NCBI GenBank assembly: GCA_022729255.1
Contig: JALDAG010000015.1
Location: forward strand, 1-20,111
Direction of reading: 5' to 3'
From: Candidatus Nanohalarchaeota archaeon
GTDB lineage: Archaea; Nanohalarchaeota; Nanosalinia; Nanosalinales; Nanoanaerosalinaceae
Length of the DNA stretch: 20,111 nucleotides
The translations under genes were made by a program, and so were the position numbers. The notes below the pieces were generated by a model. The model was not told the DNA's origin. It saw only the letters and a program-made list of their open reading frames with translations, and searched no databases. The stretch's first letter is position 1. Each line of letters begins with the position of its first letter. Positions 1 to 18,302 of the stretch are shown here, in pieces.

Positions 1-3000
1 GGAATTAAAGGCAAATCACTGATCCTAACAACTTTTCTGATACTAATTTTCGGTCTTGTCATCGGTGTTCTTCCCGGAGACGAAGTCGATGTTGCAGGTG
101 ATACTGTTTCTGTACAGTTGGAAGAAGGATCAAATTTGATCCCTGCCCTTGATGCAGATCTAAACGATATTTTGGATGCGGGCTGCGACATAGGGCGTTT
201 CAGTGACAGCACAGTAGAGGAGCCTTTCATGTACTTCGACAACACTGTTTATGATTATGTGGAGACCGATTCCTTGAGACATGAGGGAAAGGGTCTCTGG
301 GTTCCTGTTAGAAGCGGCTGCAGTTTTGAGGCAGAAACTTATGTCGCCGAACAGATGAACTTGGGGACAGGGAAAAATGTTTTGACCTTCTCTGCCGACA
401 TCGACATCGACTTATTTGAGATGAATGACTGTCAGTTGAGTTTTTTCAGGGGAGATATATCTTCAAGAGAAGAACCATTCGCAGTTTTCCAAGATGGCGA
501 ATTCATCGCAACTGATTCCGTAAGTGAATATACTCCTGTTTATATACCTATTGAAGATGGATGTACATTTGATTTGGACGCTGCTTTCTGGGATTTAGAG
601 GTATCCTCTGATGAAGGAGGTATTATAAGGGGAGAAGAAGCAGGCCGATTTGCAGAGGGAGAAAAAATTGTTTTGAAAGCGGTTCCTGAAGAAGGATATG
701 TTTTTGGTGGATGGGAACTTGAGGGAAGCTCTGAAAAATGTGATGCTGAGGAGAAAATTTGTGAATTCGAGATAGAGGAAGATACGTTTGTCAGATCAAG
801 TTTTGTTGAAGAAGATGAACCAATAGAACCTCCTTGGGATAGCGAAGTTGAGCTGAATGTTGATTCAGGAGATCTTGTCGAGGTAGTGGAACCAGGTGAG
901 GGAGAGTTTAGTTTTGAAGAGGGACAGGCTGTCGACCTTGTTGCAGAGTTTTCACCCGATTTAGAGCATGAACCAGAATTTTCTTGGATCGGTGATCTGG
1001 AGGCTGTGGAAGACCCTGATTCTCACGAAACAATGATCGTTATGTGGGATGATTATCATGTAAAAGCTGTATACGAGGGCGAAAAAATCGAAAGAGAAAC
1101 TTTCGAAGTATATATCTATTCAGGAGATTTTGTTGAGGTTGTTGAGCCCGGTGAAGGTTACCATGAATTTAAGGAAGGCGAAGTAGTTGAACTGGTAGCT
1201 GAAGTTTCTCCAGATCTCGAAACCGACAAAGGATTTTCATGGATAGGAGATATTAGAACATTAGAAGATTCTGAATCCTTGGAAACACAAGTAGAAGTAC
1301 AAAGAGAGATGGAAATCGGCGCTGATATAGATATGTTGGGAGATACTTCGTACAGGGACTGTATTGATGAAAATGGAGAGATAGCAGAGGCTGACGGCGA
1401 ATACATATGTAGGATTGAAGGTGACAGCTGCCCATCCGGATGGGAACAGTATGAGGAATGGTCAACAACAGAGTCTGATACCTGTACAAGTAGCAACTTC
1501 TTCTGTGGAAGTTCGTGTAGCACTGATAGCCATGAATGGGATAATGAACCCGTTGAAACTTGTACTTATCAGAGAACTAGGAGAGGGATTCTACCCACAT
1601 GTCGCACTGATACATGTGAAGCAGAACTTGTTGAAGTCGGCTGTATAAGAGGAGATGCTCCAGAAGAATATGAAGAGGAAACCTATGATCTTATGATTAA
1701 TGTGTATGGAAGAGGTACTACACAGCCTTCAGGTAGACGAAGACATAGTTTTGAAGAGGGTGAAGAAGTCGTAGTAACTGCTGAACCTGCCGAAGGATTT
1801 TTATTCGCTGGTTTTAGAGGAGACTGTCAAGGCACCGAGAATTGTACATTGGAGATGAATTATGACAAGAGAGTAACGGCAACATTTGAGAGAGACAGGG
1901 AGTGCGAGACTGATAGTGACTGTCAACACCTTTTATGCCCTCAGGCTGTAGGTATGGACACACCTATTTGCGATCCTGAGACCAATACATGTAAATGTGG
2001 AGATGGTGAAGAAGAAGAGGTAGTTGAGGAATACGGGCTCAATATTGATATAGAAGGAGAAGGTTCAACAGAACCCCCTGAAGGTTTCAATACATTTGAA
2101 GAAGGTGAATCTGTTGAATTAGTAGCTGAATCAGAAGATGGCTGGAAATTTGATAGATGGTCTGGAAGATGTTCTGGTAGTGACAAAGAATGCGAATTAA
2201 CTATGAACTCTGATAAAAACGTAACAGCACACTTCAAAGAAACAGAACTTATTGGAGAAGGTTCCTTTGATGATTGTGTGTCTGCTGAAGGTGAGGTAGT
2301 CGAGGTTGATGATGGATATATATGTAGGTTTGATAATAGTAGATGTCCGCACCCACGCATCAGCGATCATCAATGGGAACAGTACAAGGACTGGAGCTCA
2401 ACATCTTCTGACTACTGCAGCAGCAGTAACATACTTTGCGGGACTTCATGTAATACTGAAAGTCATGACTGGGCTAACGAACCAGTTGAAACTTGTACCT
2501 ATGAAAGAACAAGAAGCGGTATTAGCATAGGATGTACTGAAACTGTTTGTAGAGCTGATGTCGATCAGATAGGATGTATTATCACAGAGACTGATGAGGA
2601 GGATTATGACAACGACAATGACAACGACAACGACAATGACTACGAGAATGACAATGACAACGACAATGACTACGAGAATGACAATGACAACGACAATGAC
2701 TACGAGAATGACAATGACAACGACAATGATGATGAGGAAGAAAAAATATGTGAACCAGGAGAGACCAGAAGATGTAGTACAACTTGTACATACAGAGAGT
2801 GTGGAGGAGTCAACGACAATTCTTGCAGAAGACAGAGAGAAACAGTCAGAGGAGAGATGGAGTGTCGGGATGACGGTACTTGGGGATCATGTAGTGATAT
2901 AGGACGCTGCCCTGAGGACCAGTGCAGATTCAATTCTGATTGTAGATTTGATGATGATGAAGATGACGAATTCGAAGAATGCGTTGAAAACTGTGCTGAT

Positions 3001-3057
3001 GATCACTCATCACCTTGTTGGGGAGACACAGCATGCTGTGAGGACAGGTGTTCGTAA
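1..3057 (+). CDS. 5'-truncated large secreted or membrane-anchored surface protein: very acidic, cysteine-rich, modular. It contains InlB B-repeat-like domains, two copies of a ~100-aa Cys-rich module, a small Cys knot, an Asp/Asn repeat linker and a C-terminal Cys-rich domain.
   Basis: Frame 1 is open from nt 1 with no stop, so the track start at TTG 118 is not the real start and the gene begins upstream of the window. Nt 19-78 encode the hydrophobic LILTTFLILIFGLVIGVL signal/anchor followed by PGDEVD. Repeated motifs of the G..V.L.A.P..G..F.GW.G.C.G...C...M..D..V.A.F type (e.g. FEEGEEVVVTAEPAEGFLFAGFRGDCQG..CTLEMNYDKRVTATFE and FEEGESVELVAESEDGWKFDRWSGRCSGSDKECELTMNSDKNVTAHFKE) resemble the Listeria/archaeal InlB B-repeat fold. 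More than 55 Cys residues occur in spaced patterns. Glu+Asp content is extreme. The stop is TAA at 3055-3057. Confidence 0.8.
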   Translation, partial: GIKGKSLILTTFLILIFGLVIGVLPGDEVDVAGDTVSVQLEEGSNLIPALDADLNDILDAGCDIGRFSDSTVEEPFMYFDNTVYDYVETDSLRHEGKGLWVPVRSGCSFEAETYVAEQMNLGTGKNVLTFSADIDIDLFEMNDCQLSFFRGDISSREEPFAVFQDGEFIATDSVSEYTPVYIPIEDGCTFDLDAAFWDLEVSSDEGGIIRGEEAGRFAEGEKIVLKAVPEEGYVFGGWELEGSSEKCDAEEKICEFEIEEDTFVRSSFVEEDEPIEPPWDSEVELNVDSGDLVEVVEPGEGEFSFEEGQAVDLVAEFSPDLEHEPEFSWIGDLEAVEDPDSHETMIVMWDDYHVKAVYEGEKIERETFEVYIYSGDFVEVVEPGEGYHEFKEGEVVELVAEVSPDLETDKGFSWIGDIRTLEDSESLETQVEVQREMEIGADIDMLGDTSYRDCIDENGEIAEADGEYICRIEGDSCPSGWEQYEEWSTTESDTCTSSNFFCGSSCSTDSHEWDNEPVETCTYQRTRRGILPTCRTDTCEAELVEVGCIRGDAPEEYEEETYDLMINVYGRGTTQPSGRRRHSFEEGEEVVVTAEPAEGFLFAGFRGDCQGTENCTLEMNYDKRVTATFERDRECETDSDCQHLLCPQAVGMDTPICDPETNTCKCGDGEEEEVVEEYGLNIDIEGEGSTEPPEGFNTFEEGESVELVAESEDGWKFDRWSGRCSGSDKECELTMNSDKNVTAHFKETELIGEGSFDDCVSAEGEVVEVDDGYICRFDNSRCPHPRISDHQWEQYKDWSSTSSDYCSSSNILCGTSCNTESHDWANEPVETCTYERTRSGISIGCTETVCRADVDQIGCIITETDEEDYDNDNDNDNDNDYENDNDNDNDYENDNDNDNDYENDNDNDNDDEEEKICEPGETRRCSTTCTYRECGGVNDNSCRRQRETVRGEMECRDDGTWGSCSDIGRCPEDQCRFNSDCRFDDDEDDEFEECVENCADDHSSPCWGDTACCEDRCS
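871..1350 (+). repeat. Intragenic tandem duplication of a ~85-aa (255-nt) domain (VEVVEPGEG..F.EG..V.LVAE.SPDLE....FSWIGD...)
   Basis: Two adjacent copies (about 871-1125 and 1126-1350) are clearly alignable at protein level (LVEVVEPGEGEFSFEEGQAVDLVAEFSPDLEHEPEFSWIGDLEAVED vs FVEVVEPGEGYHEFKEGEVVELVAEVSPDLETDKGFSWIGDIRTLED). The DNA has diverged, so this is an old duplication. Confidence 0.7.
1357..1647 (+). repeat. Cys-rich module, copy 1 (DCIDENGE...W.QY..WS....D.C.SSN..CG.SC.T.SH.W.NEPVETCTY.RTR.GI...C....C.A.....GCI)
   Basis: About 97 aa with 10 Cys. Paralogous to 2269-2580. A conserved 45-nt stretch gaacc(c/a)gttgaaacttgtac(t/c)tat... is near-identical between the copies (1546-1590 vs 2479-2523). 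Confidence 0.7.
2269..2580 (+). repeat. Cys-rich module, copy 2
   Basis: DDCVSAEGEVVEVDDGYICRFDNSRCP...WEQYKDWSSTSSDYCSSSNILCGTSCNTESHDWANEPVETCTYERTRSGISIGCTETVCRADVDQIGCI aligns residue-for-residue with copy 1, including all Cys positions. Confidence 0.7.
2608..2727 (+). repeat. In-frame tandem repeat: three perfect 30-bp copies (gactacgagaatgacaatgacaacgacaat at 2638-2667, 2668-2697, 2698-2727) preceded by one degenerate copy (2608-2637). It encodes (DYENDNDNDN)n.
   Basis: Counted directly in the sequence. Unit length is a multiple of 3 and the copies are 100% identical. It sits as a low-complexity linker between Cys module 2 and the C-terminal Cys domain. Confidence 0.9.
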
Positions 3058-3117: not shown

Positions 3118-4614
3118 CATCCTGAAAAGCTTCTTAGCTTTTTCTATAATCCCTGAATCCCCGTGTTTTATATCAAGCATAGATTCTATACTGTTGTACA
3201 GTTTTTCAGTATAAGGAAACCAGTTCAGTTCATCATCTTTATTCCTATTTACCATTACCGATTTCGGCTCAACGAAAGACATCAAACCTTCAGGACCATG
3301 GTAACGTCCTATACCGCTTTTTTTAACTCCTCCAAATGGTGTGTAAGGATTACCGATGTTTTTAACGACGTCGTTTATGTAGCAGTTACCAGTCTTTAAC
3401 ATAGAAGCAATTTTTTTACCTTTTTCTACATCTTCTGTCCAAACACTGGAGTTCAAACCATAAACACTGTCATTAGCAAGTTCAACTGCTTCTTGAACAC
3501 CTTCAAACCCCATTACAGGTATTACCGGTCCAAAGGTTTCTTTTCTCATAACATCCATCTCGTTTGTCACCTGGTCAAGAACGATAGGTTTAAGGAAGTT
3601 GCCCTGATGTTCGAACTCGGTCAACATCTCAGCACCCTTAAAAACAGCGTCATCTACCTGATTTTTGATTAGCTCTATTTGCTCCTCCCTTATCATAGGG
3701 CCCATCTCTGAAGTTTTACTATCACCTATGTCGACCTTTTTAACTTCCTCAAGAAGTTTTTCAATAAATCTTTTCTTGATCGATCTCTCAACATAAACTC
3801 TTTCTGAAGAAACACAGATCTGACCACTATTTGCAAGAGAGCCGTAAACAACCCCTTTGACAGCTCTATCCAGATCAGCGTCCTCGAAAACTATGAAAGG
3901 ATCTTTACCACCTAGCTCTAATTCCACATCAATTAGGTTTTCAGAAGCCTTTTTCATGACTTCTTTACCCGTTTCAACTCCTCCAGTGAAAAATATCTTG
4001 TCAGGCTTGTTCTCTATAATTTTTTCCCCTACTTCTCCGCCTCCATGAACCACTTGGAAAACGTTTTGCGGAAAACCGGCTTTATCTATAAGTTCTTCAA
4101 TCTTCTTACCTGTCAAAGGAGTAATTTCAGAGGTTTTCAGTATCACAGTGTTTCCAGCAACAAGCGCTGTGATCGAAGGTATCAGAGATATCTGGAAAGG
4201 GTAATTCCAAGGAGATATCACGGATACCACACCGTAGGGCTGGTATTCAACGTATGAATAATTTTTACTAAACTCTATAGGAGTTCTCCTTTTCTCTTTT
4301 TTCAGTATCTTTTCTGAATTATTCTCGTAATACTTTATGAAATCTAAAGTGGTCATTATTTCCGCCATCAGTATTTCTACGTCTGGTTTACCTGTATCGG
4401 ATTTCAAAGTGTGTAAGATGTCGTCCAGATTGTTTAAAACAGTTTTTCTGAATTCCTTGAGAAAAAAACATCTATCAGCTATGTCAAGGTTTTTCCACTC
4501 TTTAAGAGATGTCCTAGCAAGAAAAAACTTTTTTTCTATTTCTTGGTCGGTCGAAACTTTAACAGAACCTTTTTTTTCATTGTCCACGGGGTCGAATGCA
4601 TGGAGATCTTTCAT
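3106..4614 (-). CDS. NAD(P)-dependent aldehyde dehydrogenase (ALDH superfamily)
   Basis: 502 aa. ELGGKDP glutamate-active-site motif, catalytic Cys context GQICVSSERVYV, and Rossmann FTGGVETGKEVM. Typical ALDH length. Confidence 0.85.
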   Translation of the reverse strand: MKDLHAFDPVDNEKKGSVKVSTDQEIEKKFFLARTSLKEWKNLDIADRCFFLKEFRKTVLNNLDDILHTLKSDTGKPDVEILMAEIMTTLDFIKYYENNSEKILKKEKRRTPIEFSKNYSYVEYQPYGVVSVISPWNYPFQISLIPSITALVAGNTVILKTSEITPLTGKKIEELIDKAGFPQNVFQVVHGGGEVGEKIIENKPDKIFFTGGVETGKEVMKKASENLIDVELELGGKDPFIVFEDADLDRAVKGVVYGSLANSGQICVSSERVYVERSIKKRFIEKLLEEVKKVDIGDSKTSEMGPMIREEQIELIKNQVDDAVFKGAEMLTEFEHQGNFLKPIVLDQVTNEMDVMRKETFGPVIPVMGFEGVQEAVELANDSVYGLNSSVWTEDVEKGKKIASMLKTGNCYINDVVKNIGNPYTPFGGVKKSGIGRYHGPEGLMSFVEPKSVMVNRNKDDELNWFPYTEKLYNSIESMLDIKHGDSGIIEKAKKLFRMAKK

Positions 4615-8594: not shown

Positions 8595-9914
8595 ATGGAT
8601 AAACCTAGATTTTTAGCCAAACTTTTCTCCATCCTCCTTTGGTTGATCATATTTTTGACAGTTTTCCAGTTCTTGATAGGAGCAAGAAACATAGCTAATT
8701 ATGAAAAACAAGTACTTGAACAAAATATAATACATGAAATCGATAACAGGATTGAAAGAGGTATAGATGTATTTACTGAGATAAAGGAGAAAGAAGAGCA
8801 CTACTATGTTTCCATGATAAAAGACGAGATCGGAAAGGTGGAGTACGAGATACCCAAAGAAAATGACAGGGAGTTCTCGGTATTTCTATTCGGTGGTTCA
8901 TCAGTCGTTTTTCCTGTTGGAGAACATATGAACTTCCCTGAACATCTCGAAGAAAAGGTAAAAAATAGGACGGAAGCTAATTTTTCGATCTACAACTTTG
9001 GTATGCCGGGTGTATCCACAAGTACAATACTTAACTCTCTGGAAAGGATTCTTGAAGTGAAAGAACCCGACATGGTGGTGATATATACAGGTCACAACGA
9101 CTATTTTTTAACACATCACATGTTTACGGAAAACACCCCTGATATTTTTTATGATGAAAACGTTTTGTGGCCTCTTTACAACAGTCTGGGTCCCTTGATT
9201 GATAGAGAAAGCGCTTACATGTATGATTCCAAGAGGATAACGGAGTACAGGATGATGACCTTAGCACATTCCATAGGATTGGTTGATGGAAAAAGAATAT
9301 TTGATTTAAAGAAAAAGACCGATAAAATTATAGAGGAGGAATACTTTGAGGAAAATATTAAAGATATCCAGAGTTTAACAGAAGAGAGAAGTATTGATTT
9401 GGTGTTCCTAACAACCATATCCAGGATCAGAGGAGTTAGAACAGAAGAGATGTTTCTTTCAAAGGATGAGATGGCAGAATTTCATGATTTTGTGGATAGA
9501 GCTGAAAGTTATTTGGAACAAGAGGAATTCGATAGATCTCTCGAAATATTTGGAAAAGCACTCGATATAAATGATAATAGCTCTAAAATCTATGAGAGAA
9601 TAGGTGAGATATATGAGGGTAGAGAGGAATACATGAAAGCCCAGGAGAACTTTATAAAATCTAAGGACAGAAATGTTTTCGGTCAGGATCCCAGAGCTCC
9701 TTCTTATTTCAATGAAATACTTAGAAATGTTGAGAAAGAGAAAGTATACACAGTTGATGTTCGGAAAAAGTTACTGGAGGATGAGGATTATCCTTTGATG
9801 GACAATGATTTCTTTGACAGTGAAATACATATAGGAGGAGATAACACTGGTCAGGTTGCTGAAAAAATCTTTTTAGGACTTGAAAAAAGAGGATTGATTG
9901 ATGATTTCGAATAA
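8595..9914 (+). CDS. Membrane-anchored SGNH/GDSL-family hydrolase with inserted TPR-like repeats (paralog A)
   Basis: N-terminal TM (FLAKLFSILLWLIIFLTVFQFLIG). SGNH blocks: I VFLFGGSSV, II NFGMPGVS, III IYTGHNDY, V FFDSEIH. TPR-like helices (SYLEQEEFDRSLEIFGKALDIND..IYERIGEIYEGREEYMKAQENF). Clear paralog of 11917-13215. Confidence 0.65.
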   Translation: MDKPRFLAKLFSILLWLIIFLTVFQFLIGARNIANYEKQVLEQNIIHEIDNRIERGIDVFTEIKEKEEHYYVSMIKDEIGKVEYEIPKENDREFSVFLFGGSSVVFPVGEHMNFPEHLEEKVKNRTEANFSIYNFGMPGVSTSTILNSLERILEVKEPDMVVIYTGHNDYFLTHHMFTENTPDIFYDENVLWPLYNSLGPLIDRESAYMYDSKRITEYRMMTLAHSIGLVDGKRIFDLKKKTDKIIEEEYFEENIKDIQSLTEERSIDLVFLTTISRIRGVRTEEMFLSKDEMAEFHDFVDRAESYLEQEEFDRSLEIFGKALDINDNSSKIYERIGEIYEGREEYMKAQENFIKSKDRNVFGQDPRAPSYFNEILRNVEKEKVYTVDVRKKLLEDEDYPLMDNDFFDSEIHIGGDNTGQVAEKIFLGLEKRGLIDDFE

Positions 9915-11916: not shown

Positions 11917-13215
11917 CTAGTTAACCATAGAACTTTCTTCAAGACCCTTGAATATTTTCTTGGCTATTATTTCGTTGTATTCAGAGTTGAAGTGAACCCA
12001 GTCATCAAAGAGATCGGGTTTAAACAGAAGTTTATTGTTGTCTTCCTTCAACAACTTTTTGAGATCTACAACTGTTACGTGAGAACCGTTCAAACTTCTG
12101 ATAAAATTGTTTATGGAGGATTTGGCTCTGACGTCATAGCTGAAATCATCCTTGTCTCTGGCAATCCTTAAACTTCTCAGAGATTTATCCGTTTCTCCCA
12201 ACTCTTCATATATCAGGCCTTTCTTGTAATGAATCATAGCATTCTTACTGTTTAACTTTTCCGCATCTTTGAAGTTTTCTATAGCCTGTTCATAATTTTG
12301 TTTATTCAAATCTTCGAAACCTCTATCCCTATAATTGATGAAATCATCTCTCGATGTTTCATTTACGAAATCATAATCTATCTCAAAAGGCCTTATCTTT
12401 AGATTTGAACTTACTGTGATGAAAACTGTTTCAACGCCTTTTCTCTCGGTGATTTCCACAATTTTTTCCATATTTGTCTTATAAGAGTCTAAAGCATTTT
12501 CATTGACTAAATTCATTATGTCATATACCTTTTCCGAGTCAATTATACCAACTGACATACCTAGATTGATAAGATAAGGTGTAATGGTATTTCTTTTCAA
12601 ATCCTCTATTTCGTGATTAGGCCTTCCTGAAAGAAAGGTCTTTCTGTAGAGATACCATATCAGATTATTTTCAAGTAAATCAAGTTCATCCCTGATTATA
12701 TTATGGGATTCAAAGTGGTCGTTGTGCCCGGAGTATATCAGAACCATTTCAGGTTTTTCCATATTGATGCTTTTGTTTAAGCTTTTGACAATTGATGTGG
12801 AACGAGCACCACTTTTTGCTAGGTTATAGACTTTTTTACTCTGATTATTTTCCTGTTCAAAAATGTTTTCGAGATAAAGAGGTATATATTTCTTTTCGCA
12901 GAAAGGTGTGACCATAGAGGAACCACTAAAAACATATATATGATCTGAAGCATTACTATCAATCTTGAATGTTTCCCTAAAACATTTTCTTTCTATCTCA
13001 ATAAACTTTTCATTATTTGAATTCAAATTATCAAAGTAATGACCATTCTCATTATATCTAAGACCTCTGAAACTCGTGTTTAGTTCCTCTAGATCAATAT
13101 TATTGATATTATTAGAACTTGAAACAAACTGAATTATAGGGATGATGGTCAAGGACCATAAAATTAAGATGAGGACTATAAAAGTTTTTTCCCATGGTTT
13201 TGAGGTTTCATCCAT
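11917..13215 (-). CDS. Membrane-anchored SGNH/GDSL-family hydrolase with inserted TPR-like repeats (paralog B)
   Basis: N-terminal TM (TFIVLILILWSLTIIPIIQFV). Blocks: I YVFSGSSMV, II NLAKSGARS, III IYSGHNDH, V LFDDWVH (DxxH). TPR-like LNKQNYEQAIENFKDAEKLNSKNAMIHYKKGLIYEELGETDKSLRSL. Collinear alignment with 8595-9914 over about 350 aa. Its stop is 6 bp from the convergent OTC stop. Confidence 0.65.
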   Translation of the reverse strand: MDETSKPWEKTFIVLILILWSLTIIPIIQFVSSSNNINNIDLEELNTSFRGLRYNENGHYFDNLNSNNEKFIEIERKCFRETFKIDSNASDHIYVFSGSSMVTPFCEKKYIPLYLENIFEQENNQSKKVYNLAKSGARSTSIVKSLNKSINMEKPEMVLIYSGHNDHFESHNIIRDELDLLENNLIWYLYRKTFLSGRPNHEIEDLKRNTITPYLINLGMSVGIIDSEKVYDIMNLVNENALDSYKTNMEKIVEITERKGVETVFITVSSNLKIRPFEIDYDFVNETSRDDFINYRDRGFEDLNKQNYEQAIENFKDAEKLNSKNAMIHYKKGLIYEELGETDKSLRSLRIARDKDDFSYDVRAKSSINNFIRSLNGSHVTVVDLKKLLKEDNNKLLFKPDLFDDWVHFNSEYNEIIAKKIFKGLEESSMVN

Positions 13216-15001: not shown

Positions 15002-15719
15002 ACCTTCTGTTCAGATAATCCTCCTTAGAAAAAACAAGCTCATGACTTTTTTCTTTCAACCATTGACGCCCTTTTCTGTAATCAGGAAATTTTTCTTCAA
15101 GACTTTTCCAGAAATTCTTGTCATGTTTCATATTTTCAAGATGAGTTAATTCATGAGCAACAACATAGTTTAAGACTTTTTCAGGTCCCAGGCATAACTT
15201 CCAGTTGAAAGAAAGGTTATTCTTTGAGGAACAGCTTCCCCACTTGGTCTTCTGATCCCTGATAAATATCTTGTTGTAGTCCTTTTGGATCTTCTTGGAG
15301 AAAATTCTTACTCTCTTCTTTATCTCCATTTTTGCTTCCCTTTTCAATATATCTCTGACTTTATCCTTGATCGATTTTTCTCCGATGTATCTTTTCGCTA
15401 TTAGAATATAATTATCTCTTAACTTATGGCTGTTACCATCTATTATCTTAATCTTTCTATACTTCCCAAGAAAAGGTATGGTTTCTCCCTCTTCGAAAAC
15501 CCTTTCAGGCAATTTTTCGATGTAACTATCGTATTCTCTTTTTTTACTAAGAACCCAATCCAAGTTTTCATCCAAAAATCTTTCAGGATCCAAAAAACTT
15601 TTTTTAGGTATCACAACCCTTAAAACTCCAATACCAACATCTATACGGGCATTTTTAGCTTTTTCACTTTTCCTTATATCGTAATCAAGACAAAGACCCG
15701 GTCTCACAAATTTAGGCAT
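15000..15719 (-). CDS. DUF45/YgjP-family zinc metallopeptidase-like (WLM/SprT-like HExxH) protein
   Basis: 239 aa. C-terminal HELTHLENMKHDKNFWKSLEEKFPDYRKGRQWLKE matches the HEL.H..E.NHS..FW.LV....PDY......WL motif of the YgjP family. Confidence 0.7.
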   Translation of the reverse strand: MPKFVRPGLCLDYDIRKSEKAKNARIDVGIGVLRVVIPKKSFLDPERFLDENLDWVLSKKREYDSYIEKLPERVFEEGETIPFLGKYRKIKIIDGNSHKLRDNYILIAKRYIGEKSIKDKVRDILKREAKMEIKKRVRIFSKKIQKDYNKIFIRDQKTKWGSCSSKNNLSFNWKLCLGPEKVLNYVVAHELTHLENMKHDKNFWKSLEEKFPDYRKGRQWLKEKSHELVFSKEDYLNRR

Positions 15720-15794
15720 ACAAAATAAATGTTTTTATTCCACTGTTTAATATCCTGATGGTTTCTTTTAGAAGAGGAGGATTATTTGTAAGCG

Positions 15795-16232
15795 TCAATC
15801 TAAAATATTTTTTGCGATATACTCTGCAGGAGGTATGGTTTCGATGGATTCCAATTCTTTCCTAGTGAACCATCCTACATCAGAAATCTTATGGTCGCTC
15901 AAGTCTTTTTCTCCTCCTTCAAGATGGCATAGATAAACTGTGATCAGGACATGCACCCTCTTTTCTTCGTATTCAAGCATGTAGCTGAAGACATCTTTGA
16001 AAAGTTCAGGGTTCGAAACCTCGTAACCGGTCTCTTCATCAACCTCTCTAACAGCAGTTTCTTCGGGATCTTCCCCAAACTCTATTCTTCCACCGGGTAA
16101 CTCCCATTTACCGTGAAGTTTTTCGTCACCTCTACTTTCTCTCCTAACAAGAAGCAATTCTTTTCCTTCTCCTTTCATCACCGCTCCACAAGAAACCATG
16201 AAACGTATTTCTTTTTTACATGCATCCTTCAT
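15795..16232 (-). CDS. NUDIX hydrolase
   Basis: Perfect Nudix box GGRIEFGEDPEETAVREVDEETGY (G.5E.7REU.EE.GU). 145 aa; an alternative start lies at Met11. GAGGT 8 nt upstream of ATG 16232. Confidence 0.85.
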   Translation of the reverse strand: MKDACKKEIRFMVSCGAVMKGEGKELLLVRRESRGDEKLHGKWELPGGRIEFGEDPEETAVREVDEETGYEVSNPELFKDVFSYMLEYEEKRVHVLITVYLCHLEGGEKDLSDHKISDVGWFTRKELESIETIPPAEYIAKNILD

Positions 16233-16242
16233 TTTTTATACC

Positions 16243-16347
16243 TCAACCGTGTTTTTTCCCTGTATGGATGTGAAGTCCTTGCTCCGAATCAAACATTTCT
16301 CCACACTTTTCACATTCAAACTTTTCTCTCTCATGGACTTTCCCCAC
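16243..16347 (-). CDS. Unannotated micro-ORF, 34 aa, classical C2H2 zinc finger (VGKVHEREKFECEKCGEMFDSEQGLHIHTGKKHG), GTG start
   Basis: My own translation of the minus strand of the 182-bp gap. F-x-C-x2-C-x3-F-x5-L-x2-H-x4-H matches the C2H2 consensus exactly, including the structural Phe/Leu. TGA stop at 16243-45 lies 11 bp upstream of the NUDIX ATG. GTG at 16345-47 is the only in-frame start after an upstream TGA. TATA-like tttatag (16383-16389, minus strand) lies about 38 nt upstream. Confidence 0.4.
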   Translation of the reverse strand: MGKVHEREKFECEKCGEMFDSEQGLHIHTGKKHG

Positions 16348-16414
16348 GGTTTTCTTTCAGCGATATTATCGATCTGTTGACCTATAAAGAAACAATATAT
16401 TTAAAATGTTGTTA

Positions 16415-17116
16415 TCAGTCAGCATTTTTGCTGTAGAACATTACTTCGGTATCACCTGATCTGATAGCTTCTTTAATACTTTTAACATTTTTTTCGCAGA
16501 GTAAAACCGTTTTCCAAGAAGAAACATCTTTCTTTGAATGCATATCAGAATTAGCTACATAGTTCAGTCCTTCCATACCTACATGAGAGAAATAATCGTC
16601 ACGGTTACCGATTTCCCAAGCATCGAATAAATCCCTGAACTTTTCAAGACGATCCCAGAGGTAAGTATTTCCTTCATGTCTACTTGAAGTGGTTCCATTC
16701 ACAGGGTGAGGGGCTATGGCAACACCTCCCTGTTTTTTAATGGCCTTGATTATGGGTTCCGCTTCCTGATTAGGATCTATGAACTCTGTAACGTCGAGAC
16801 CCAGGATATGAAAACCCCTTGTATTGGCGGTAAACTCTATCCCAGGGATTACGAGCAGCCCATACTTCTCCATAGCTAATTCCTTGCATCTCTCTATCTC
16901 GTTGTAGTACTCATCAAGTTGTTCACGGATAAGACTTCTCCTGTACTTCTTATCAACATTTTTGTTTTTCAGACTGTCAGCGTCCAGAAAATGATCTGTT
17001 ATCGCTATAACATCGAAACCTTCTTTTCCATATATATTTACTACTTCTTCTATACTGAGATCTCCATCACTGTTTTTTGTATGTATGTGGAGATCGCACA
17101 ACAGTTTTTTTGACAT
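16415..17116 (-). CDS. PHP-domain (polymerase/histidinol-phosphatase-like) metal-dependent phosphoesterase
   Basis: 233 aa. N-terminal LCDLHIHTKNSDGDLSIEEV...VIAITDH. His/Asp metal ligands are spaced as in PHP domains. Confidence 0.75.
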   Translation of the reverse strand: MSKKLLCDLHIHTKNSDGDLSIEEVVNIYGKEGFDVIAITDHFLDADSLKNKNVDKKYRRSLIREQLDEYYNEIERCKELAMEKYGLLVIPGIEFTANTRGFHILGLDVTEFIDPNQEAEPIIKAIKKQGGVAIAPHPVNGTTSSRHEGNTYLWDRLEKFRDLFDAWEIGNRDDYFSHVGMEGLNYVANSDMHSKKDVSSWKTVLLCEKNVKSIKEAIRSGDTEVMFYSKNAD

Positions 17117-17156
17117 ACATATTTCTTTGAAAACACACCACTAAAACTGTTTTGGT

Positions 17157-17909
17157 TTAATCGGTCTGTTCTCTCAAATCATCTAACTTTTTCTCAAGTT
17201 TTTCTCTTATTACTTCGTTTAGGTCTCTGCTCAGACGGAAGTAATGGTTTACAGATAATACCCTGGTCTTGAAATCAGATATCTTTTTATTTTCTTTCAC
17301 CCTTTGATTAAGCTCCATAGTTGCATCACGGTATAGATGTTTGAAAGTTGCTATCTTAGGCGATACATAGTTCTGATTAAATTCCAAAACAGCCTTTCTG
17401 GTCTTGTAAGCTATGTCCAAAGAATTAACTATGTCGACAAGGAAAACTCCGTAAACCATCCCAAGGAAGAAAACACCTACTGAAGAGATATTAAGATCGT
17501 TTAAGAGGTACTGGAAGTAAGGAAACAGGGAATACTTGAAAACTCCTGCAAGTATCAACCAGTAAACAAGGAATCTTAGACAGACATGTCCATGGATATT
17601 GAACTTTCTATCGGAGTAGTCCCATAGCCTTATACGAAAAAATCTCTGGAATAGGAAACCTGTTATGTATTCCATTACACCTATTGAAACTAAGAACAAA
17701 GCTGCACTTCCTAAAACTGTTAATTCATTGGAGTAAACTGTGAGTAAATAGGTGATAAATCCTCCGAAACCATATATCGGTAGATATGGTCCTTTGAGAA
17801 ATCCTGGGTTTAAAAAGTGTCCGGTTTCCTGAGATCTGTATGTTAATTCGATTATCCATCCGAGAGCTGCAAAAATCAGGTAAGTGAGTAAAAGGTTTCC
17901 TATATCCAT
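17157..17909 (-). CDS. Polytopic membrane protein, DUF1113 ('putative ABC-transporter type IV', PF06541-like) with C-terminal charged coiled-coil tail
   Basis: 250 aa. N-terminal LGWIIELTYRSQETGHFLNPGFLKGPYLPIYGFGG is reminiscent of that family. About 5 TM segments, then a 70-aa K/E-rich tail. Confidence 0.5.
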   Translation of the reverse strand: MDIGNLLLTYLIFAALGWIIELTYRSQETGHFLNPGFLKGPYLPIYGFGGFITYLLTVYSNELTVLGSAALFLVSIGVMEYITGFLFQRFFRIRLWDYSDRKFNIHGHVCLRFLVYWLILAGVFKYSLFPYFQYLLNDLNISSVGVFFLGMVYGVFLVDIVNSLDIAYKTRKAVLEFNQNYVSPKIATFKHLYRDATMELNQRVKENKKISDFKTRVLSVNHYFRLSRDLNEVIREKLEKKLDDLREQTD

Positions 17910-17981: not shown

Positions 17982-18302
17982 CTATAGCCTTTCTTCAACC
18001 CATTCAACTATATCATCCGATTCCATAACACCTGAAAAACCATCTTTCTTCTCTCCATCTATAAATAAGACGACATGAGGAATACTTCTAACTCCAAGAT
18101 CTTCTGAGACTTCAGGCAACTCATCTATGTTGACCTTCACAAAATTAACGGAACTCATCTCTTTACCACACTTCTCAAATTTAGGTCCGAGTTTTTTGCA
18201 TGGGAGACACCATTCAGCCCAAAAATCCACTACCACGGGGTTTTCTTCGGATTTTTTCAGGACCTTTTTTTCAAACTCTTCCTCATTCTTTATCTCTTCC
18301 AT
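17982..18302 (-). CDS. trxA: Thioredoxin
   Basis: 106 aa. Active site WAEWCLPCK (Trx WCGPC variant) and cis-Pro context SIPHVVLF. Its start is 11 bp downstream of the stop of the Trx-CcdA gene. Confidence 0.85.
   Translation of the reverse strand: MEEIKNEEEFEKKVLKKSEENPVVVDFWAEWCLPCKKLGPKFEKCGKEMSSVNFVKVNIDELPEVSEDLGVRSIPHVVLFIDGEKKDGFSGVMESDDIVEWVEERL

Follow-up and report, generated by a model that had tools for sequence, protein, structure and literature searches.

A 34-codon C2H2 zinc-finger reading frame in a nanohaloarchaeal genome is probably the remnant of a larger gene shortened by a recent deletion

The DNA analyzed here (the window) is a stretch of 20,111 nucleotides (nt) of contig JALDAG010000015.1, from a Candidatus Nanohalarchaeota archaeon. 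In the gap between its genes for a PHP-domain phosphoesterase and a NUDIX hydrolase, it carries a minus-strand open reading frame (ORF) of 34 codons that encodes a single classical C2H2 zinc finger. A first-pass annotation had taken this ORF for a dedicated gene of a one-domain micro-protein, a view that found no support in the comparison with a syntenic relative, the metagenome-assembled genome (MAG) NHA23, where the finger is the second of two in a 168-residue bPH_2 membrane protein and where the window has a 481-nt deletion. In our reading, to which we assign a probability of roughly 0.62, the ORF is the 3' remnant of a membrane-anchored bPH_2-(C2H2)2 gene left behind by this young deletion, and its product is probably not under selection.

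The PHP protein has few close homologues, with identities of 86%, 64%, and 53%. The closest is encoded on JALDAH010000037.1, which belongs to NHA23 of 'Ca. Nanoanaerosalina' (L003, L004, and L007), and there the gene order is that of the window, namely CmpB-like, PHP, a slot X, NUDIX, YgjP-like, DUF2582, and Band_7. In NHA23, slot X is filled by a called gene for 168 amino acids (P0124; L003 3712-4218), or about 200 with the conserved N-terminus, whose product ends, right before the stop, in ...DEKYKCEKCDKLFETDKDLYIHIGRIHEREKFECEKCGEKFDTEKGLHIHTGKKHG (C-terminus ...YKCEKCDKLFETDKDLYIHIGRIHEREKFECEKCGEKFDTEKGLHIHTGKKHG). Pfam recognizes a bPH_2 domain in it (3.7e-10) as well as zf-C2H2 at 29.4 bits, over the threshold, and a hydropathy scan gives one strong transmembrane (TM)-like segment (residues 32-50) before the PH domain, with two C2H2 patterns at the C-terminus. 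The window peptide is identical to the last 34 residues of this protein at 82% of amino acids and about 85% of nucleotides, and the four zinc ligands and the hydrophobic core of the finger are the same in both, while the bPH_2 domain and the TM segment preceding it, present in L003, are missing from the window. The frame is thus kept in a relative, as the first-pass annotation had proposed to check, but only as part of a larger gene, and NHA23 is the only relative found with this finger. The locus is not there in the stretches carrying the 64% (L005) and 53% (L006) PHP homologues; in L005 (663-1639), DUF2582 comes directly after PHP, and the block of bPH-finger gene, NUDIX, and YgjP-like is gone.

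Global alignment with cheap gap extension placed a single 481-nt gap in the window opposite L003 ~3633-4113, and BLASTN paired L003 1989-3632 with window 17995-16348 and L003 4126-7567 with window 16335-12890. In the parent gene, the deletion begins near codon 3 and reaches to where finger 1 ends; because 481 equals 3x160+1, it leaves the 5' stump out of frame with the finger. Before the junction the window reads CAGATCGATAATATCGCTGAAAGAAAACC, matching CAGGTCGATAACATCCCTGAGAGAAAACC of L003, which there continues in frame into PEGGLEEGEKIKIYFQPSPFRYLGYYILGV... (PEGGLEEGEK...). After the junction, GTG GGG AAA GTC CAT in the window corresponds to ATA GGA AGA ATT CAT in L003, the I-G-R-I-H that closes finger 1. 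What the window ORF encodes is therefore the final four residues of finger 1, then the linker EREK and finger 2, up to the original stop. Its residues 2-9 (GKVHEREK) are the end of finger 1 and the inter-finger linker rather than a free N-terminus, and GKVH-EREK aligns with IGRIH-EREK of L003, preceded there by ...YKCEKCDKLFETDKDLYIH. A self-contained finger gene would have no need of such an opening, which speaks for a gene stump. The frame of the 5' stump, in turn, is that of a 32-residue ORF (MREKSLNV...) running to a TAA at 16238-16236, whose frameshifted product would include ...ERKPWGKSMREK. As in a gene remnant, then, the ORF matches part of an intact syntenic gene, and a frame-disrupting lesion has put the two stumps in different frames. 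Microhomology at the deletion ends amounts to ~1 nt, too little to infer a mechanism.

The window is 99.96% identical to JAKOOZ010000052.1 (L001), from MAG NHA-2 of 'Ca. Nanoanaerosalinaceae', a nanohaloarchaeal (DPANN) family known from hypersaline soda-lake sediments (PMC9765267); the host is, accordingly, not a haloarchaeon in the strict sense, as it had been read at first. The NHA-2 genome measures 876 kb with a GC content of 38.5% (PMC9765267), and the window, with 34-43% GC and glutamate-rich proteins, fits it. The same junction is found in L001 (NCBI), in L002 (Logan SRR9330139), and in L009 (JGI Ga0207421), each of which differs from the window by 2-3 single-nucleotide polymorphisms (SNPs) away from the junction. 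All four near-identical yet distinct assemblies being deleted, the loss appears to be fixed in the NHA-2 population. Among the four, 8 SNPs were counted over ~11 kb compared, a diversity of ~0.1%.

With regard to the ancestral state, a word-indexed search with the NHA23 protein returned two more members of its family, namely the PH domain-containing protein of Ca. Nanohalobium constans (P0126) and P0125, encoded on a contig from Logan. Both begin MEPEGGLH.GESVKKHFTPSPWKY.GWY.LG, aligned with KPEGGLEEGEKIKIYFQPSPFRYLGYYILG of NHA23, and have the TM and bPH_2 parts in common with it at 50-53% identity; at their C-terminus, they carry a C4 zinc ribbon and an acidic tail instead of two C2H2 fingers. 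The Nanohalobium gene (P0126, L018 5001-5708) is not syntenic with PHP or NUDIX. Because these homologues share both the PEGGL N-terminus and bPH_2 with NHA23, we take the long form to be ancestral. The start of the long gene is a separate matter. In NHA23 the conserved N-terminus RKPEGGLEEGEK... (L003 3583-3714) is open in frame, with no in-frame ATG, GTG, or TTG before the TTG at 3712, and the ATG GAG of the Nanohalobium homologue reads AGA AAA in NHA23 and in the window alike; either the NHA23 gene uses a near-cognate start, or the start was lost before NHA23 and NHA-2 split. Should NHA23 start at a near-cognate codon 5' of ERKP, the equivalent site in the window would give a frameshifted product of 45 residues instead of the finger.

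The finger itself is real, and beyond what chance would produce. The product of the ORF is given in Table 1, and CGEMFDSEQGLHIHTGK is a stretch of it. Its zinc ligands are C12, C15, H28, and H33, an exact C-x2-C-x12-H-x4-H, and its hydrophobic core is formed by F10, F19, and L25. In the six frames of the window, this is the sole C-x2-4-C-x12-H-x3-5-H pattern; across 2000 order-1 Markov shuffles of the window, again in six frames, the strict finger motif never occurred, and the loose one occurred 0.04 times per shuffled window. Spacing, core residues, and shuffle test hence agree with the exact C2H2 finger with Phe/Leu core first described. Solved C2H2 fingers (Aart, ZNF568, and SALL4) resemble the peptide by sequence, and it has the same spacing and F/F/L core as the classical C2H2 family (PF00096); it differs from that family in being a fragment of a two-finger array that stays under the Pfam gathering score (E=7e-4, 20.4 bits against 25.2 bits), and in having no TGEKP linker, the linker of the parent being EREK. 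By E-value, the top Pfam match of the peptide is DUF7128, likewise under its own threshold, on which we found no literature, and NCBIfam holds no family matching either the peptide or P0124. The suggestion to model the fold was followed, but the models were uninformative: AlphaFold2 on the single sequence reached a pLDDT (predicted local distance difference test) of 77.8, but DSSP assigned no helix, and a Foldseek search of this model against the PDB gave nothing at E<=0.001. For P0124, with an alignment of 3 sequences, the pLDDT was 43.

A stand-alone orthologue of the finger was sought widely. None was found in 5.8 billion clustered proteins, JGI (Joint Genome Institute) metagenomes, or GTDB genomes, nor in IMG/VR scans or by tblastn against phages and plasmids. 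An exhaustive HMMER search of the peptide against 1.84 billion representatives had no stand-alone orthologue among its best 150 matches, which are mostly long multi-finger proteins (P0124, P0176, P0195, and P0139 were recovered) and which these fill to the point that single-finger micro-proteins are not surveyable there. The peptide padded with X gave no candidate in the word-indexed protein search. Exact look-ups of the 34 residues gave no record, and the absence of the exact peptide from a collection of 15 billion proteins bears out that gene callers overlooked this ORF. The GTDB genome scan with the PHP protein listed NHA23 and one bacterial homologue only, the species of the window not being represented there, and the JGI metagenome scan with the finger alignment brought up, apart from the population of the window itself (L009), only finger proteins with no relation to this one and contigs of eukaryotes.

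Much of what had been said about the setting of the ORF was borne out by the coordinates. It lies directly upstream of NUDIX, behind a TATA-like box (TTTATA) about 38 nt 5' of the GTG; an in-frame TGA sits three codons 5' of that codon (16359-16357), and NUDIX has its GAGGT Shine-Dalgarno (SD) site. The spacer between the stop and the NUDIX ATG is 10 nt, in the window and in L003 alike, the 11 bp reported at first being counted to the A of the ATG (16232). At the other genes that open an operon in the window, a similar AT-rich box lies 30-45 nt upstream and an SD is lacking, and the internal operon genes, including NUDIX, have GGTGA or GAGGT sites. We presume that the two TATA-like boxes are the promoter of the ancestral gene, retained after the deletion. 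Since this old promoter, the NUDIX SD, and the 10-nt spacing have all been kept, transcription of the stump probably occurs together with NUDIX, as the 5' leader of the NUDIX mRNA, with a start predicted at about 16360-16375. The aligned ancestral N-terminus, AGA AAA CCG (16355-16347), ends on the base with which the GTG (16347-16345) begins, so that this GTG would be the first canonical start on a short-leader transcript. A known riboswitch or small RNA in the gap was also considered and rejected, as Rfam matched no RNA family on 15700-17200.

Put together, these data suggest the following course of events. The ancestral protein would have combined a TM segment at its N-terminus with a bPH_2 domain and, on the cytoplasmic side, two C2H2 fingers in tandem. 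A single out-of-frame deletion in the NHA-2 lineage then removed nearly all of the gene up to the end of finger 1. It spared the old promoter and ten N-terminal codons, now out of frame, together with the last residues of finger 1, the linker, the whole of finger 2, and the stop. The GTG at the junction, which in the ancestor would have been no more than a Val/Ile codon within finger 1, may support a degree of translation of the free 34-residue finger, and such a product, if made, would probably have no selected function.

Several observations weigh against a stump free of selection, and they are at the same time the case for an alternative, that a micro-protein was born by the truncation itself, with the junctional GTG as its start and the free finger co-expressed with NUDIX and kept by selection. 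Such a product might act as a soluble version or a competitor of the former membrane-tethered finger module, toward the same nucleic-acid or protein partner. Decay is not seen: the start, the frame, the stop, the four ligands, and the core are intact, and the stops, indels, and ratio of non-synonymous to synonymous substitution rates (dN/dS) near 1 that neutral decay of a remnant would bring are all missing. Over the 34 codons, window and NHA23 differ by 8 synonymous and 7 non-synonymous changes (dS 0.65, dN 0.089, dN/dS 0.14), where the neighboring genes have dN/dS of 0.08-0.20 at dS of 0.6-0.9, and the replacements are conservative (V/I, K/R, V/I, M/K, S/T, and Q/K). Under a simple Poisson model that treats a fraction f of the window branch as neutral, 7 or fewer replacements become unlikely (P<0.05 to 0.12) when f exceeds 0.25-0.3, and with a deletion time uniform along the branch (f uniform), constraint comes out 3.5-9.5 times likelier than neutrality. 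The GTG differs from the ATA of L003 at two positions, and the start codon could have been gained after the deletion. Translation is plausible as well, judging from a promoter geometry and a lack of SD like those of other leading genes. Lastly, none of the 8 SNPs among the four assemblies falls in the 105-nt ORF and 2 (16373 and 16393) fall in the 68 nt that separate the PHP stop from the GTG, a weak point at this level of diversity and with numbers too small to interpret. On the other side, the dN/dS is a sum over the two branches, along most of whose length the gene was still intact. The 5' stump, which can no longer specify its former protein, is equally conserved, with 3 synonymous-type and 2 replacement-type differences from L003 in 10 codons, one of the latter being a polymorphism within the NHA-2 population (16373); that it is as coding-like as the finger fits a young deletion, and we favor the youth of the deletion as the reason for the absence of decay. 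For a neutral stump, the deletion may date back as much as ~25-30% of the branch, and in a substitution-only simulation the start, frame, stop, and ligands were kept in 36% of cases at 0.05 neutral substitutions per site and in 13% at 0.10. Besides, non-functional DNA in a genome of 0.88 Mb would be visible only while young, a bias toward precisely this picture that weakens the case for selection. The failure to find a stand-alone orthologue in the databases searched and the lack of a confident beta-beta-alpha model from AlphaFold also count against a selected micro-protein, as does the weak DNA binding of a lone classical finger that has no basic regions beside it. All considered, we see birth by truncation as a possibility of distinctly lower standing than an unselected remnant, and somewhat more doubtful again is the full claim that one deletion created a free 34-residue C2H2 finger that, served by the old promoter and starting at the junctional GTG, is translated and maintained by purifying selection. 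If true, this would be, to our knowledge, the first stand-alone classical C2H2 micro-protein in archaea.

It could also be that the finger sequence is irrelevant and that the ORF serves as a leader, or upstream ORF, of NUDIX, where translation close to the NUDIX start would give coupling or unmask the SD. The geometry is suggestive in this respect, as the ORF stops 10 nt before the ATG, GAGGT overlaps that stop, L003 has the identical arrangement, and the frame opened by the 5' stump likewise runs out 3 nt short of the ATG. Coupling, however, would not keep amino acids, and yet the replacements are few and conservative; moreover, NUDIX has a good SD of its own, and we hold a leader role to be unlikely. 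More improbable by far is that the short form is the ancestral one, with NHA23 having gained bPH_2 and finger 1, or that the gap in the window is mis-assembled. The long two-finger form is indeed found in one genome only (NHA23; L003/L004), but an insertion would have needed to break up the conserved P|EGGL shared with the Nanohalobium homologues and to bring in exactly that front part of finger 1 which is missing, while mis-assembly is excluded because the junction is common to four assemblies of different data sets that differ by SNPs. A probably unselected remnant is the reading we retain.

How the ORF relates to zinc-finger proteins described elsewhere also changes in the light of these results. 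The haloarchaeal one-domain micro-proteins that had been invoked as precedent are of the C(P)XCG type, with C4 or C3H sites (PMC6562870, PMC11241148), and are thus of another motif class. Brz of Halobacterium salinarum and HVO_2753, HVO_0758, and further C(P)XCG proteins of Haloferax volcanii are encoded by stand-alone genes whose expression and phenotypes have been demonstrated (PMC2253796, PMC6562870, PMC10716476, PMC11241148). The window ORF resembles this group in its length under 70 residues (34), its one predicted zinc site, its halophilic archaeal host, and its position beside a possibly co-regulated gene. It differs in having one CEKCG plus H-x4-H where the others have a pair of C(P)XCG motifs, as well as in being a lineage-specific gene stump where the others are conserved stand-alone genes. 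Ros/MucR offers another Cys2His2 site in a prokaryote, with a shorter Cys-His spacing and a larger globular domain (PMC6562870); the window finger has the eukaryote-type x12 spacing, and the Pfam matches of the peptide at E<=1 include no Ros/MucR family. As to the parent family, bPH_2 (PF03703, e.g., P0126), the NHA23 orthologue shares its N-terminus, TM segment, and bPH_2 domain, whereas the window copy has lost the TM and bPH_2 parts altogether. At the same C-terminal position, members of this family carry either a C4 zinc ribbon, as in Nanohalobium, or a pair of C2H2 fingers, as in Nanoanaerosalina.

The closest non-orthologous fingers among the listed matches (P0176, P0195, P0139, L010, and L016; Table 1) belong to acidic halophile-type proteins and share with the peptide the signature C-x2-C-G-E-x-F-D-[ST]-E-x-G-L-x-[IV]-H. 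A eukaryote-like C2H2 finger in a prokaryote, which had been singled out as unusual, is less surprising for that reason. A further example, on an IMG/VR contig, is L020. It is little noted that C2H2 fingers of the eukaryote type occur in halophilic (nano)archaeal proteins, where they adjoin a TM helix or lie at a terminus, and these architectures suggest a recurring module in the cytoplasmic tails of halophile membrane proteins.

Table 1. Coordinates of the locus in the window, and architecture of proteins with similar or unrelated C2H2 fingers (positions of the latter are those of their own stretches).
Feature	Position	Strand	Details
34-codon ORF	16347..16243	minus	GTG start, TGA stop 16245-16243; product MGKVHEREKFECEKCGEMFDSEQGLHIHTGKKHG
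Finger 1 tail G-K-V-H (with its last zinc-binding His) and linker E-R-E-K	16321..16344	minus	
Finger 2 core F10-H33	16249..16320	minus	F-x-C-x2-C-x3-F-x5-L-x2-H-x4-H
Deletion junction	16347..16348	minus	GTG = first codon past the junction
5' stump Q-I/V-D-N-I-A-E-R-K-P	16348..16376	minus	25/30 nt identical to L003 3604-3633
Two TATA-like AT-rich boxes	16383..16406	minus	TTTATA 16388-16383; TTTTAAATATATT 16406-16394
GAGGT Shine-Dalgarno of NUDIX	16240..16244	minus	overlaps the stop codon of the stump
PHP-domain phosphoesterase gene	16415..17116	minus	Pfam PHP; 86% amino acid identity to L003 2860-3567; upstream anchor
NUDIX hydrolase gene	15795..16232	minus	Pfam NUDIX 8e-24; 79% amino acid identity to L003 4229-4666; downstream anchor
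P0176			two N-terminal fingers, TM helix, thioredoxin-like domain
P0195			two TM helices, zinc ribbon, two C-terminal fingers ending KHG
P0139			six fingers; C-terminal region read as putative winged helix
L010, L011 (metagenomic)	L010 4007-4513		finger and coiled coil
L016	1400-4087		895-residue surface-type protein, TM helix, C-terminal finger
L020 (IMG/VR contig)	3500-4102		unrelated C-terminal C2H2 finger

These results carry a caution for micro-protein hunting: a short ORF between genes can show a perfect motif and yet be what a recent deletion left of a gene, something that only a syntenic relative brings to light. They also document ongoing gene loss in a symbiont-type genome of 0.88 Mb. 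If the stump should turn out to be translated and selected, it would instead provide a datable origin of a micro-protein by truncation in a reduced DPANN genome.

A few further observations were made along the way. A second large indel lies within 2 kb of the locus: L003 381-1988 holds ~1.6 kb with Na/Pi cotransporter and SHOCT-domain genes between the thioredoxin and CmpB-like genes, and the window has nothing in their place (~17990-17995). The NUDIX protein is called with 127 residues (start M19) in NCBI/ENA and with 145 in JGI; the longer form looks correct, given the ATG at 16232 with its GAGGT SD and the 145 residues and same geometry in NHA23. Elsewhere in the window, a plus-strand ORF of 979 residues (118-3057) is extremely acidic and Cys-rich, with internal duplicated modules and a DNDNDNDN-Y-E-N repeat tract at about 2590-2760, and its product looks like a secreted or surface protein. 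Finally, the genes for an arginine deiminase-like protein and for ornithine carbamoyltransferase are bordered by two ORFs of ~435 residues, one on the plus strand (8595-9914) and one on the minus strand (11917-13215). To the eye, the two resemble each other as paralogues would and have a TM segment at the N-terminus, and their counterpart in L005 has faint GDSL-lipase matches.

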